This document shows, in pieces, positions 22,787 to 48,715 of a stretch of DNA of 64,000 nucleotides (the stretch's first letter is position 1; every line of letters starts with the position of its first letter). The notes beneath the pieces are model-generated. The model had not been told where the DNA came from, did not search any database, and saw only the letters and a program-made list of their open reading frames with translations. The translations under genes were made by a program, and so were the position numbers. Source of the stretch: a virus; IMG/VR virus record IMGVR_UViG_3300029908_000016, positions 17,006 through 81,005 of that record; one strand, 5' to 3'.

Positions 22787-23482
22787 ATGAACGATGTTCT
22801 GACTCGCCAGGAAAAGATACAACAAATACGTGACTTCTTTAATAAAACAAAAATCGATAAATCAGTTACGCAGCATACGTTGAATAAAGAATATAGTAAT
22901 GTTAATCCTGAATTATTAACTACTACTTCTGGTAAATTACTAAGAATTCATAAAAATGAAGTAGATCCCGATGATCGAGATAATCTGCTGTTCTCAAAGT
23001 TTCATGGACTAGAAGATCATCTAGTACAACATGTACAAAAAGATGCCGGAAAGCTTAATGCTAAAGCTAGAATGAAGATGGAGCAGAAGAAAAATTTAAG
23101 TTGGTTAGACGCTGGGTTTTGGAGTCCTCAACTACGCAGTGTACTGGTATCTAATAGTTTAACCCAACCAATTGACGGTATAAATCCAATAGAATTTTTA
23201 TCGTTGTCGCATAAAGTAACCAAAATGGGAGAAGGTGGGATTTTTTCTTCAGAATCCGTGCCTCAAGAAAGCCATCAAATCAGTGACTCATCCTTTGGTT
23301 GGATCGACCCTATGCAAGTTCCAGAATCTTTAGATATTGGAGTTACAAGTTATTTTACTCAAGGTACAAGAAAAGGTTTTGATAATAAACTTTATAAATT
23401 AGTGAAAGATAAAAATGGTAATAAAGTTTGGAAGGACCACGAGACTTTATTGAACAGTGTGGTGGATATCCCGGAATACTAA
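22787..23482 (+). CDS. rpoB: RNA polymerase beta subunit, middle fragment (fork loop / Rif region)
   Basis: LTQPIDGINPIEFLSLSHKVTKMGEGG...FGWIDPMQVPESLDIG aligns with RpoB [27 protein letters not shown]...YGRVCPIETPEGPNIG. Confidence 0.85.
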   Translation: MNDVLTRQEKIQQIRDFFNKTKIDKSVTQHTLNKEYSNVNPELLTTTSGKLLRIHKNEVDPDDRDNLLFSKFHGLEDHLVQHVQKDAGKLNAKARMKMEQKKNLSWLDAGFWSPQLRSVLVSNSLTQPIDGINPIEFLSLSHKVTKMGEGGIFSSESVPQESHQISDSSFGWIDPMQVPESLDIGVTSYFTQGTRKGFDNKLYKLVKDKNGNKVWKDHETLLNSVVDIPEY

Positions 23483-24156
23483 CTCCAATAACTTGAACTT
23501 ATAATCGTAGTGTTACCTGTTTTTGTTCCTCCATCAATACCAGTAGTATCATCATACATTGGAGATACTGTTTTACCAAATACTGAACAAGTATAACCAG
23601 GGCACACAACAGAACCTATATTTGTAACGTTGTTAGCCCCCGTACCTCCAACAGATATAAGCAGTCGAGGATAATATAACCCAGTTCCTAACTTATCCCA
23701 GTAGGTACCACCCCAAATGATAGCAAGCCCAAAGTTTGCTTCTTCTGCTTCACTGCCTGTAGAATATGCATTATAATTTAAACTAAGTCCATTACCTAGT
23801 CCAATTAAATTATTATTCGTTCTTATCGCCGGTGACCATGGAGTAGAAGGAATTGATGTAGGTGCTCCAGTTAAAGGCTGATTATATAGCCCTAAACTTG
23901 GACCGGCGGCACTACCATTAAAATAAATAGTTTCTGTAGGATCAATGTTTGGTATGTAAGTCCATGTCCAAGTGCATTCAATATTTTTGGATAGCCAATA
24001 TTCTTTAACAATCTCCTGAGTGGTTAATCCAATATTATAACCATAATTTGCAGGAGGAACTCCTATAATAGGAGTAAAGGGTAAGAATCCTTGATTATAA
24101 TATAATGCTACACTCATTCTATACTGGTTCAGGATAAATAGCCGCGTTACCACCAA
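23479..24156 (-). CDS. putative structural/tail-associated protein
   Basis: Gly/Thr/Tyr/Asn-rich, low charge, beta-type composition. Confidence 0.45.
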   Translation of the reverse strand: MVVTRLFILNQYRMSVALYYNQGFLPFTPIIGVPPANYGYNIGLTTQEIVKEYWLSKNIECTWTWTYIPNIDPTETIYFNGSAAGPSLGLYNQPLTGAPTSIPSTPWSPAIRTNNNLIGLGNGLSLNYNAYSTGSEAEEANFGLAIIWGGTYWDKLGTGLYYPRLLISVGGTGANNVTNIGSVVCPGYTCSVFGKTVSPMYDDTTGIDGGTKTGNTTIISSSYWS

Positions 24157-46056: not shown

Positions 46057-46862
46057 CAATAATGAATCTCGATCCTCTATCTACATTCCTTGAGAAAGAA
46101 GGGAGTGATAAAGCTTTGGCTTTGAAAGAGGATATAGATAACTTACCCATTAAAGTCTACCACGGTTCTCCTAAGCCTCATTTAAAAGAATTGTATAAAG
46201 GTAGTTATGTAACAACAGATCCTTCCATTGCTCATAAGATGGGAAGGTTCTACAAATCAACAGGTAAAACTTGGAAAGATGATGATTTAGCAGAACGTTA
46301 TGGTTTTACACCAGACATTAAGTTTAAAGAAGGAAGAGAACCTGACGGTGAACCTACTGTATATGAGGGAGAAATTCATAAAAAAGATATTGATTTTTTA
46401 AACAATCCACACGAGCATAAGACTCTAATTCCTATCCCTATTAAAATATATAAGATGAATAAGACTTCTTCTGCTCATTTTGCCGATGTGAAATTTTCCA
46501 GTTTACCTTCCAAGACTCAGGAAGATATTAAAAGATTTGCTAGTGATATTACCGACGATACATTATTGATTCATGCAGGTTATGTGATTAAAGAATTACT
46601 CCCGATGGTAGATAAACATAACTTCGATCAAGCTGAGAAACATATTAAGGATACTAAGATTGATGAGAAAGAATTTTATAAATTACTTCCTTCTAAGTAT
46701 ATTTTGATTAAAGATAATAAGATAATTGATGGCCACCATTACGTGGCAAAGGCTCGTAAACTTGGCGTTACATGTTCCTTAAATGTACTGGATTTAACAC
46801 CTATACGTTTTCAGAAAAAAGCTGCGAATCTATGGGAAGTATTAAAGAATAGGATTTCTTAA
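46053..46862 (+). CDS. putative ADP-ribosyltransferase-like + ParB/Srx-like two-domain protein
   Basis: VYHGSP...GSYVTTD..IA (ART-like); IIDGHHY.AKA..LG (ParB-like). Confidence 0.58.
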   Translation: MTIMNLDPLSTFLEKEGSDKALALKEDIDNLPIKVYHGSPKPHLKELYKGSYVTTDPSIAHKMGRFYKSTGKTWKDDDLAERYGFTPDIKFKEGREPDGEPTVYEGEIHKKDIDFLNNPHEHKTLIPIPIKIYKMNKTSSAHFADVKFSSLPSKTQEDIKRFASDITDDTLLIHAGYVIKELLPMVDKHNFDQAEKHIKDTKIDEKEFYKLLPSKYILIKDNKIIDGHHYVAKARKLGVTCSLNVLDLTPIRFQKKAANLWEVLKNRIS

Positions 46863-48715
46863 TGGAAACTACCGTAGGTCACATACTTTTAAAAAATTTG
46901 TTACCTAAAGACTTACAGCATTATGCGAGTAAAACATTAGATAAGAAAAACATCGAAGCACTGTTCAAGGATATTACTGTTCATCATCCTGAACAGTTTA
47001 ATCATTTAGCTTCTGAAATTGCGAGATTCGGGTTTGAAACTAGTACTAGGCAAGGTTCTTCAGTTTCTTTAGAAGATTTAAAATCTCCAATTGATAAGAA
47101 TAAACGATTTGATGAATTAGAAGCTGAAATAGCAAAGATTCGAAAAAAGGGGTTATCCAAGGAAAAAGAGAATGAAGAAATATTAGAAAAATATTTTGAA
47201 TTCACTTCAACAATGGATAAAGACATTATTGAAGAAGGCTTAAAAAAAGACAATACATTAGCCAAGATTATTAAAGCAGGTGCCAGAGGTTCAGTGGCTC
47301 AATATCGTTCAACCGTAGCTTCTCCTGGGTTGGTCTTGGATTCTAAAGAAAATCCGTTAGTAAATTTTCCAGTTAAGCACTCGTTTAGTGAAGGATTATC
47401 TTTACCGGAATACCTAATTACTTCATATGGAGCACGTTCTGGAGAATTGAGCAAGAAGGTAGGTACTGCGAAAGGAGGCTATTACGCAAAACAGACGAGT
47501 AGATCTTCATTAACCATACAAGTTGTTGAACATGATTGTGGGACAGCTAATGGTGTACCTTTTCCAGTTAGTGATAGAGACTCGATAGGCTCTTTTTTAG
47601 CACATCCAATTCAAGGTTACAAAAAAAATAATGAGATTACTGCTGAAGTATTAGCCGACTTACAAAATAAAAAAGTATTCCAAATCGTCGTAAGATCACC
47701 TTTAACATGTCAATCATCCAAACAATTTCATAATGGTGCAGTTTGTCAGTTATGTACAGGTATACGAGAAAATGGATTACCTGAGATTGGCAGTTATGTT
47801 GGTGTTATTGCAGCGGGGTCTATTTCTGAACCGTTATCCCAGAGTCTACTAAATCGGAAGCATACAAGCGGAACTGCTTCTGGTACAAGTACTTCTGTTG
47901 GTTTTGACCTCATCAATCAATTGGCAAATATACCTAAAAATTTTCCCGAAGGAGCAACAATAGCTAGTCATGCTGGAAAAATTACTTCGATCAAAAAAGC
48001 AGATGCAGGTGGTCATTATATTAACGTGGATAAGACAGAACACTATGTTCAACCGGGATTTAATATGCATGTTAATCTTGGGGATGAAGTAGAGGCTGGT
48101 GATGTTCTTTCTGAGGGGGTTATTGACCCCAGTGAAATTGTTAAACATAAAGGTATTGGAGCAGGAAGAAAGCATTATGTAGAGGCCATGCACAAAGCTT
48201 TTAAAGAATCAGGAATTGGAGTCAATCGTCGTAATTTTGAATTAGTAGCTAAAAATGCGATTGATCATGTAAAGATTATTGATCCATCTGGCTTAGGAGA
48301 TTATTTACCCGATCAGATTGTTAGTTATCAAGGTTTGGAAAAAAGTTATCATCCTAGAGAGAATAGTAAATTAATGAGGATCGATGTAGCTAAAGGCCAT
48401 TATTTGGAAGAACCTGTGTTACATTTTACAATTGGTACATTGATTACAAAATCTGTTATCGAGGAATTGAAACGTAATGGTGTTGAATCGATAAATGTTA
48501 ATGAGCATAAACCAGGTTTTGAGCCTGTAATGCAACGTCTTCTTGATGTTCCGGAATATGAACCGGATTTATTTCACCAACTGTATTCTACATATTTAAA
48601 TAAACGATTGTCTACTGCTGTTAATACGGGTGTTGGTGCGAGTAGTGATTTAAAAGGACCATCTCCAATATTAGGGCTTGCGTATAGTAAAGGTTTCGGT
48701 TCAGGCCAATATTAG
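46862..48715 (+). CDS. rpoC: RNA polymerase beta' subunit, C-terminal fragment
   Basis: TTVG, AGARGS, FSEGLSLPEY...YGARSG (bridge helix), HDCGT, VRSPLTC..VCQLC, GVIAAGSISEPLSQ..NRKH (trigger loop). Confidence 0.92.
   Translation: METTVGHILLKNLLPKDLQHYASKTLDKKNIEALFKDITVHHPEQFNHLASEIARFGFETSTRQGSSVSLEDLKSPIDKNKRFDELEAEIAKIRKKGLSKEKENEEILEKYFEFTSTMDKDIIEEGLKKDNTLAKIIKAGARGSVAQYRSTVASPGLVLDSKENPLVNFPVKHSFSEGLSLPEYLITSYGARSGELSKKVGTAKGGYYAKQTSRSSLTIQVVEHDCGTANGVPFPVSDRDSIGSFLAHPIQGYKKNNEITAEVLADLQNKKVFQIVVRSPLTCQSSKQFHNGAVCQLCTGIRENGLPEIGSYVGVIAAGSISEPLSQSLLNRKHTSGTASGTSTSVGFDLINQLANIPKNFPEGATIASHAGKITSIKKADAGGHYINVDKTEHYVQPGFNMHVNLGDEVEAGDVLSEGVIDPSEIVKHKGIGAGRKHYVEAMHKAFKESGIGVNRRNFELVAKNAIDHVKIIDPSGLGDYLPDQIVSYQGLEKSYHPRENSKLMRIDVAKGHYLEEPVLHFTIGTLITKSVIEELKRNGVESINVNEHKPGFEPVMQRLLDVPEYEPDLFHQLYSTYLNKRLSTAVNTGVGASSDLKGPSPILGLAYSKGFGSGQY

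Follow-up and report, generated by a model that had tools for sequence, protein, structure and literature searches.

We report that a 64,000-nucleotide (nt) stretch of viral DNA, hereafter the window (bases 17006-81005 of one linear 81,005-bp IMG/VR virus record, IMGVR_UViG_3300029908_000016), carries four open reading frames (ORFs), here called pieces A to D, which jointly span the bacterial RNA polymerase (RNAP) subunits beta and beta-prime from end to end. The best explanation overall, and in our view a likely one, is that these ORFs encode a bacterial-type RNAP core of the phage's own, composed of four polypeptides. Piece C joins the second half of beta to the first part of beta-prime; this fusion is an old family trait and not an invention of this phage, and the lineage is a further-fragmented branch of a very large and barely studied family of phage polymerases. 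The 81-kb contig is estimated by CheckV to hold 40% of its genome, and the G+C content of the window is ~0.34.

The four ORFs had first been noticed from the letters of the DNA and a list of translations (the sequence-only reading), and all of them are present and intact at the positions and on the strands listed in Table 1, each with its own ATG and stop codon. C runs across the beta/beta-prime junction in a single frame free of stop codons, which places both double-psi barrels on one polypeptide, as had been proposed, and in a printed alignment to Salmonella RpoC the break between C and D falls between LHARVKV (beta-prime 550) and (571)TTVGR, again as first described. Together the pieces amount to 2062 amino acids (aa) compared with 2749 aa for Salmonella beta plus beta-prime.

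Table 1. RNAP pieces and other features of the window (positions counted from its first base).
Feature	Coordinates	Strand	Length (aa)	Assignment and remarks
Piece A	29799-30479	minus	226	beta N-terminus, first part of the beta1/beta2 protrusion-lobe, ~E. coli beta 1-~250
Piece B	22787-23482	plus	231	beta middle: rest of the lobe, fork/Rif region, ~E. coli beta ~385-~620
Piece C	40500-43466	plus	988	beta C-terminal half fused in frame to the beta-prime N-terminal part
Piece D	46862-48715	plus	617	beta-prime C-terminal part from TTVGR (beta-prime 572) on
Homing-endonuclease-like gene	43450-45108	plus	552	begins inside the final 17 nt of C (C/D break)
Second homing-endonuclease-like gene	28453-29796	plus	447	convergent with A, stops 3 nt apart, A/B side
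Third endonuclease-like gene	54944-56020	plus		in the head-gene block; helix-turn-helix (HTH) plus DUF559/REase_MTES_1575
Small ORF	39939-40247	plus	~100	directly upstream of C; conserved (detected by tblastn before C at 16 of the 23 related loci)
Three small ORFs	45069-46862	plus	107, 230, 269	occupy the rest of the C-D gap
SNF2-family helicase	17480-19942	plus	820	Pfam SNF2-rel_dom plus Helicase_C
Ribonucleotide reductase, large subunit	13167-16583	minus	1138	LAGLIDADG/Hint intein inside the barrel domain
Papain-family cysteine protease	16725-17477	plus		Peptidase_C1, 3e-18
DUF4406 plus DUF6378 protein	38834-39898	plus

In Pfam, C matches Rpb2_6 (8e-51), Rpb1_1 and Rpb1_2, D matches Rpb1_5 (5e-21) and Rpb1_4, and B matches Rpb2_3 (E 1.3e-4); no Pfam match was obtained for A. 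Profiles built from A plus four relatives and from B plus five relatives were compared with the Protein Data Bank (PDB): all 31 matches of the former at E<=0.01 are RNAP beta N-termini (best 5.6e-8), and all 39 matches of the latter are RNAP beta, around E. coli 422-600 (best 2.3e-8). An AlphaFold2 model of A, computed from a 24-row alignment, has a mean pLDDT of 85, and all 50 listed Foldseek matches to it are bacterial RNAP beta chains (E 2e-9 to 1e-7), including the isolated B1-B2 domains of the M. tuberculosis enzyme; the TM-scores (0.32-0.41) are low, as expected for half of a two-lobed module. With phmmer, residues 21-530 of C align to the C-terminal half of beta and residues 603-984 to beta-prime ~175-559, while D aligns to beta-prime from ~571 on (best 9e-46). 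The PDB matches of the pieces are bacterial RNAP chains only.

For mapping we used Salmonella RpoB and RpoC from a contaminating bacterial contig (L075) in the phage collection, the lengths of which agree with E. coli numbering. With hmmsearch, A corresponds to beta 94-222, B to beta 424-601, C to beta 647-1340 (of 1342) followed by beta-prime 162-550, and D to beta-prime 572-955 and 1190-1285, that is, the pieces taken in the order A, B, C, D cover beta 94-1340 and beta-prime 162-1285 colinearly. Among the gaps in this mapping are the E. coli lineage-specific insertions, absent from the pieces, which we take to lie at beta 225-343, beta ~938-1040 and beta-prime ~943-1130. D carries the bridge-helix/trigger-loop region and the second Zn site, with its cysteines present (DCGT, TCQ, CQLC), and has no SI3-type insertion. 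Since only ~70 residues free of cysteine stand for beta-prime 1-161 (there is no Cys in C 531-610), the N-terminal zinc-binding domain of beta-prime (Cys4) is predicted to be absent from C; the flanks of the missing region, GGLFD and H-I-x-L, are kept.

The catalytic Asp triad of C (AYDLDGD) aligns to Salmonella beta-prime 460-464, and all 12 relatives aligned keep D899, D901, G902 and D903 unchanged. Of the two basic active-site residues of the beta barrel, which we take to be E. coli K1065 and K1073, the first has its equivalent in K326 of C, likewise invariant, and S358 and R359 of C are also invariant. Three changes at near-universal positions count against an active enzyme: NADFDGD has become AYDLDGD with loss of the Asn of the motif, GRHGNKG has become SAGAKG, and the position of K1073 is Gly in the window and Ala in the Salmonella phage Arash. 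RNAP activity of the four pieces is thus suggested by conservation, with these substitutions set beside it.

The pieces had been said to lie closer to the bacterial enzymes than to those of phiKZ and AR9, and the searches agree. C and D score better against the full-length, bacterial-like PHROGs 24349 and 25354 (7e-42 and 1.6e-46) than against the PHROGs named 'RNA polymerase beta subunit' (3.5e-22 and 2.5e-18), and in tblastn against phages an AR9-like Bacillus phage was matched over 17% coverage at 8e-7 and phiKZ was not listed at E<=1e-5.

Megablast of positions 40000-49000 against phage records gave no match, and a single-protein scan of viral contigs gave no relatives; an alignment-based scan was needed to find them. 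We assembled 23 IMG/VR loci with proteins of the same type as C (C-type proteins) and searched five long records among them (168-204 kb, 86-100% complete, one with terminal repeats). In all five, A, B and D are each one open ORF and the order is B(+) A(-) C(+) D(+), A being a separate ORF of 219-227 aa and B a separate ORF that is 47-50% identical. Identity of A and B among the five is 38-50%, with 58 and 88 invariant columns in the respective alignments, and at the search sensitivity used each genome has one RNAP gene set. Moreover, D follows C at a distance of 1.1-2.9 kb, and then comes a homologue of the Arash structural protein gp218, in all 19 loci that hold both, and A lies on the minus strand 7-9 kb upstream of C in 13 of the 23 loci.

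The best cultured matches to C are Arash and the Vibrio phages D69, D148 and D181, with 30-31% identity over 91-92% of C. In Arash, residues 36-199, 249-469 and 495-1516 of one protein, gp206, are matched by A (BLASTP E 1e-9), B (BLASTP E 3e-20) and C (31% identical, E 2e-139), with 26-28% identity for A and B, and D is 29% identical to gp216 over residues 7-601 (E 6e-71). Uncultured relatives are far more numerous. In a protein collection, 489 of the 8000 scored candidates match C at E<=1e-20, and the best 120 of them, encoded on contigs reaching 293 kb, are almost all 983-1008 aa long with the same three Pfam domains and 49-77% identity. Among 1.84 billion cluster representatives, C has 8497 matches at E<=0.001, of which 1393 have E<=1e-30; each of the best 150 scores E<1e-160, and most are 1400-3000 aa long with C on residues ~460-1450. 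Among 270 proteins examined, 158 have a single full-length match to the C profile, and in these the N-terminal extension before the start of C is <=11 aa in 114, 42-165 aa in 4 and >=428 aa in 40; two of the 40 also have 575-613 extra C-terminal residues. On the ~1450-aa forms the A, B and C profiles match one after the other, and in P0263 (2064 aa) and P0269 (2032 aa) all four profiles, A to D, follow each other in this sequence along a single chain; these two are whole beta/beta-prime chains that retain good similarity to the bacterial enzymes. The four proteins with intermediate extensions (P0142, P0197, P0164 and P0168) may represent other split positions or truncated gene calls. The fusion is not peculiar to this phage, being the common state of a huge family.

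A FastTree tree (64 rows, 978 columns) was rooted on three bacterial rows of merged RpoB and RpoC columns; it took in 15 of 114 C-type proteins, with multi-segment (intein-bearing) proteins left out. All 15 group together, with support 1.0, in a clade that is nested within the fused forms, the single-chain P0263 and P0269 branch first, and the phage family is monophyletic relative to the three bacterial rows, which is a weak test. That the root rests on three rows and a long branch speaks against leaning heavily on the order of events. The nesting, together with the colinearity of A, B and C on the ~1450-aa proteins, argues that the fusion of beta with the beta-prime N-terminal part is ancestral to the C-type clade and that the two breaks in beta came later and once. 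The distinctive feature of the clade is therefore the extra fragmentation of beta, which fits awkwardly with the idea that fusion simplifies assembly. The description of the enzyme as minimised is accordingly right as regards its streamlined size and wrong as regards minimisation by fusion.

The breaks lie at positions that would be permissive sites on the surface. The A/B break is in the beta lobe, at the site of the first E. coli lineage-specific insertion (SI1), the B/C break lies between beta ~620 and ~630, past the fork/Rif region, and the C/D break is in a loop that has ~20 extra residues in Salmonella (551-571), ~20 aligned residues before the cyanobacterial gamma/beta-prime break; it is for the A/B and C/D breaks that these features suggest such sites. 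In another member of the family, P0135, SET methyltransferase-like, DUF5661 and 2H-phosphoesterase domains are inserted at the A/B site (residues ~249-756).

Two of the three breaks are flanked in the window by paralogous homing-endonuclease-like genes. The gene at the C/D break matches PHROG 3339 'homing endonuclease' (4.8e-51) and Pfam DUF7487 plus a Vsr-like domain, and the one beside A matches the same PHROG at 2e-99 and DUF7487 plus a Mom-like domain; the closest copy of the latter in the relative G004 is located between C and D. Free-standing homing endonuclease genes may thus home to these gene ends. We considered them as the general cause of the splits, which is conceivable and which we did not adopt, since the C/D break is universal and an endonuclease gene is found there in one of 19 related loci (L024) in addition to the window. 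For the same reason we regard the endonucleases as sporadic visitors and not as a fixed part of the arrangement. Contigs from three of four other sequencing runs (X3, X5 and X8) leave the window sequence at 43463, at the stop codon of C, and rejoin it 72 bp on, at 43535, and contigs from another run reproduce 28000-33763 and 42251-46054 (the latter in run X4) with 0 differences. Because X3, X5 and X8 depart at 43463 and X4 matches throughout, strains with and without the exact C/endonuclease junction sequence of the window co-exist. The third endonuclease-like gene has a sole match in the relative G003, at 60.7-61.1 kb, which is non-syntenic.

Interrupted genes are also seen in the relatives. 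In L018, L021 and L022, an interruption of ~1.5 kb splits C shortly past the DxDGD region (locus 12724-14208) and another of ~0.35 kb splits D (locus 17826-18172), and the protein collection holds intein-bearing C-type proteins (P0007 and P0075); the catalytic loop appears to be an intein or intron target.

Neither a sigma-70-family gene nor an alpha gene was found in the window or in the whole 81-kb contig, in agreement with what had been noted for the DNA at hand. A weak Sigma70_r4 match at ~55025-55111 was rejected as a sigma factor; it belongs to the HTH plus DUF559 endonuclease ORF. As a statement that the system has no sigma factor, the early observation fails, since the near-complete relatives encode two sigma-70-family factors. 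One is ECF-like (192-213 aa), above the TIGR02937 cut-off in G004 and G002 and below it, at 37 bits, in G003; the other (~212 aa, group-3/FliA-like) is present in G001, G003 and G004 and is a homologue of Arash gp10 (tblastn 1e-10 to 1e-13). Colinearity with the contig is confined to ~138-172 kb in G004 and to ~101-135 kb in G003, which would place both sigma genes off the contig, at predicted places ~68-76 kb upstream of B and ~20 kb past the end of the window. That they were not seen in this genome's own contig, incomplete at ~40%, is a point against a sigma-dependent enzyme; as the contig is incomplete and the sigma genes of the relatives occupy off-contig positions, the absence means little, and the enzyme probably depends on sigma.

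Searches for alpha (PF01000, PF01193) and omega (PF01192) found none in five records (four relatives that are 93-100% complete and Arash), with positive controls in 14 of 14 genomes. The phage core may use host alpha. The proposal that the fusion makes alpha dispensable is not borne out: the phiKZ and AR9 enzymes are described as having neither alpha nor any fusion (PMC7598289, PMC13282480), so fusion is not needed for alpha-independence. A search of the five relatives for a T7-like single-subunit RNAP (PF00940) found none and is uninformative, the controls also giving no match. The small ORF directly upstream of C was considered as an omega-like or shared small subunit and rejected: it has no Pfam or PHROG match and no similarity to Arash gp205 or D69 gp260; its homologues share an LLATLIDExIHCAIWE core, common to 12 aligned copies.

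From these data we propose the following working model. The four products are very likely separate polypeptides that assemble with one another, and they would form a complete catalytic core non-covalently, as beta-N (A), beta-middle (B), beta-C/beta-prime-N (C) and beta-prime-C (D), without alpha or omega. The active centre would lie in C, which carries the two double-psi barrels; A and B would complete the lobe, protrusion and fork, and D would supply the bridge helix, the trigger loop and parts of the jaw and clamp. Promoters would be recognised by phage sigma-70-family factors encoded elsewhere in the genome, as the two factors of the relatives suggest. The enzyme and the gp10-like sigma may travel in the capsid and enter the cell on injection, where they would start early transcription, and newly made enzyme would continue later transcription.

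On packaging we incline cautiously towards a virion enzyme, by analogy with Arash. Virion mass spectrometry of that phage is reported to give gp206 the top spectral count, to place gp216 as well among the most abundant proteins and to detect gp217 and the sigma factor gp10 (PMC10585845). The gp10-like sigma is conserved from Arash to the C-type clade, and C and D share a strand and immediately precede homologues of structural genes, with the gp218 homologue directly after D and a gp222-like head maturation protease 12 kb downstream. Several points weigh against packaging: it is read from one distant cultured relative at 26-31% identity, only 8 of the 244 contig ORFs match Arash by tblastn at E<=1e-5, which weakens the analogy, and the Arash authors themselves are cited as allowing that abundant infection-phase proteins may contaminate virion preparations (PMC10585845).

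These last points feed the most serious alternative, a real but non-virion polymerase that would be made after infection by host RNAP and serve, with the phage sigmas, the middle and late genes, its position beside the head genes being incidental. The virion observations come from outside the C-type clade, A and B are located away from the head-gene block, with minus-strand genes around them, and the five relatives have a single RNAP set, where phages of the phiKZ type are described as using separate virion and non-virion sets (PMC7598289). The spectral counts of Arash, the conservation of gp10 and the placement of C and D argue the other way, and we consider this alternative possible but doubtful.

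That the pieces are joined into conventional subunits, beta and beta-prime, whether through trans-splicing, through split inteins or through programmed events, is highly improbable. The family is indeed rich in inteins and interrupted genes, including LAGLIDADG/intein domains in P0007, P0075 and P0139 and the interrupted C and D genes described above; yet each piece has its own start and stop codon, A lies on the opposite strand, the ORF boundaries are kept in all five relatives, and no intein Pfam match was found in A-D. In addition, the piece lengths equal the corresponding segments of fused relatives within a few residues and leave no room for split-intein halves of ~100 aa plus ~35 aa, and to reach conventional subunits C would also have to be cut between beta and beta-prime. 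Least credible of all is that A and B are decaying remnants and that only C and D work, perhaps with host beta fragments or core subunits, for although A and B are the least conserved pieces in comparison with Arash and gave weak single-sequence PDB matches, they are open, full-length and single-copy in all five relatives with the identities and invariant columns given above, the same segments are kept in fused relatives, and A has a confident predicted fold.

The four-polypeptide core can be extended into a wider scenario that we offer tentatively and consider rather unlikely to be right in all its parts. The polymerase would have originated as a single chain of ~2050 aa, a form kept by the first-branching P0263 and P0269, and would have been cut stepwise at permissive sites on the surface, into two genes and then, in this clade, four; the cuts would have been made or exploited by free-standing homing endonucleases, still present here at two of three breaks; and the alpha-less, omega-less core would enter the capsid together with a dedicated FliA-like sigma and be injected. 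If true, such phages would be independent of host RNAP from the first minute, and the enzyme would be the smallest natural sigma-dependent RNAP available for structural work.

Among known systems the Arash type is nearest. Arash (gp206, 1525 aa, and gp216, 606 aa) and D69 (1527 aa and 609 aa) have one chain that corresponds to A, B and C and another that corresponds to D; Arash and the Vibrio phages D69, D148 and D181 share with the window the fusion of the beta C-terminus to the beta-prime N-part and the same beta-prime break (~550/572), and are colinear at 26-31% identity. Like the C-type relatives, Arash has a gp10-like sigma, no alpha or omega, and RNAP genes among structural genes. The difference is that in the two-gene Arash type the whole of beta is in the fusion gene, whereas in the window beta 1-~620 is encoded by A and B, 10-17 kb away, one of them inverted. 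The cyanobacterial and plastid gamma/rpoC1 and beta-prime/rpoC2 pair likewise has beta-prime cut shortly past the catalytic barrel: in alignments, C 621-981 corresponds to cyanobacterial gamma (8syi_D, 624 aa) and D 21-343 to residues 10-352 of cyanobacterial beta-prime (8syi_Z). The break there is at another residue, however, with ~20 residues of D lying before the start of beta-prime; beta is an undivided subunit of its own, and the enzyme has alpha and omega. Natural rpoB-rpoC fusions in Helicobacter and Wolbachia carry whole beta and whole beta-prime on one chain and still use alpha, and crAss-like phages have a single-chain, two-barrel RNAP that, to our knowledge, has no recognisable sequence similarity to cellular beta or beta-prime. 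Like C, these have both catalytic barrels on one polypeptide; they are set apart from it here by description.

The phiKZ and AR9 enzymes resemble that of the window in being phage-own, two-barrel RNAPs of 4-5 polypeptides that split beta and beta-prime, without alpha or omega, and one set is described as virion-packaged; it is the one type of multisubunit RNAP treated in these jumbo-phage reviews (PMC7598289, PMC7824862, PMC13282480). They differ in having two paralogous sets, no sigma-70-family factor (gp68 or gp226 instead) and no fusion (PMC7598289, PMC7824862, PMC13282480), and their similarity to bacterial enzymes is much weaker, where the window family has one set, sigma-70-family genes in the relatives, the fusion, and Pfam E values down to 8e-51.

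The sequence-only reading took the polymerase to be independently captured, a point on which a published analysis bears. The multimeric-RNAP-encoding Caudovirales (mReC) of Weinheimer & Aylward 2020, a study to which PMC7598289 refers, were described from 97 metagenomic contigs and reported as a distinct, deep clade apart from cellular RNAP and not a recent capture, in a phylogeny with long-branch problems for phiKZ-type sequences (PMC7481178). The description given there fits the window family: the contigs are of uncultured Caudovirales, were drawn from IMG/VR and from metagenomes and in some cases exceed 200 kb, and their homologues of beta and beta-prime can be aligned to cellular ones and lie among phage structural genes (PMC7481178). 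By this published description, the lineage of the window probably equals or adjoins the mReC clade. The mReC were also reported with a Gp23-type major capsid protein (PF07068) and a PF03237 terminase (PMC7481178); PF07068 was not found in our five relatives, a result that is uninformative as the controls also gave no match. The main text of that study treats the genes as 'beta and beta-prime subunits', has neither 'split' nor 'sigma', and has 'fused/fusion' only for crAssphage (PMC7481178), and the Arash genes are annotated simply as beta and beta-prime (PMC10585845). No prior description of the fusion or the split architecture was found in the literature searched, which included term searches within PMC7481178, PMC7598289, PMC7824862 and PMC13282480.

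Some neighbouring genes deserve mention. The C-terminal 460 aa of the SNF2-family helicase are 41% identical to Arash gp217 (tblastn, 6e-83), which is encoded next to the beta-prime-C gene, and the helicase is a possible RNAP partner, although the link is weak: no homologue was found at E<=1e-8 in the relatives G003 and G004, which speaks against a constant partner. Of the three small ORFs in the C-D gap, the one of 269 aa has homologues directly before D in L013, L018, L021 and L022. In relatives this gap holds a Gln/Pro-rich low-complexity protein of 198-308 aa (L011 13233-14159; L008 13207-13803), flanked by a 66-aa ORF and an acidic ORF, where the window has other ORFs and the endonuclease gene. 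The DUF4406 plus DUF6378 protein listed in Table 1 is presumably nucleoside deoxyribosyltransferase-like.

No Shine-Dalgarno-like purine run precedes the starts of A, B, C or D (30479, 22787, 40500 and 46862), and the ECF-like sigma of G004 scores best with the Bacteroidota-type sigma models TIGR02985 and NF058625; taken together, the two hint that the host belongs to the Bacteroidota. The DNA occurs in runs labelled peat metagenome, with half or more of the words present in 6 runs of 6 studies (two possible sources excluded). For positions 40400-48800 no RNA run was listed, a result that has no bearing on expression.

Our data suggest a streamlined phage polymerase that lacks alpha, has its two barrels on a single chain and is not sigma-less. 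In the textbook assembly of bacterial RNAP, alpha2 is followed by alpha2-beta and then by alpha2-beta-beta-prime; here a very large natural family has beta tethered to beta-prime and no alpha or omega, and still keeps sigma-70-family factors. The clade described here shows, moreover, that beta can be cut twice more and its genes scattered without loss. These arrangements provide natural 'split-site' maps for RNAP engineering and a compact 2062-aa core for structural study, and, as the mReC study used RNAP genes as phylogenetic markers (PMC7481178), the fusion and the splits matter for building concatenated alignments. Finally, if Arash-like packaging holds, widespread environmental phages would carry a sigma-dependent multisubunit RNAP in the capsid, so far documented for capsid-carried multisubunit enzymes only in the sigma-less phiKZ/AR9 type.

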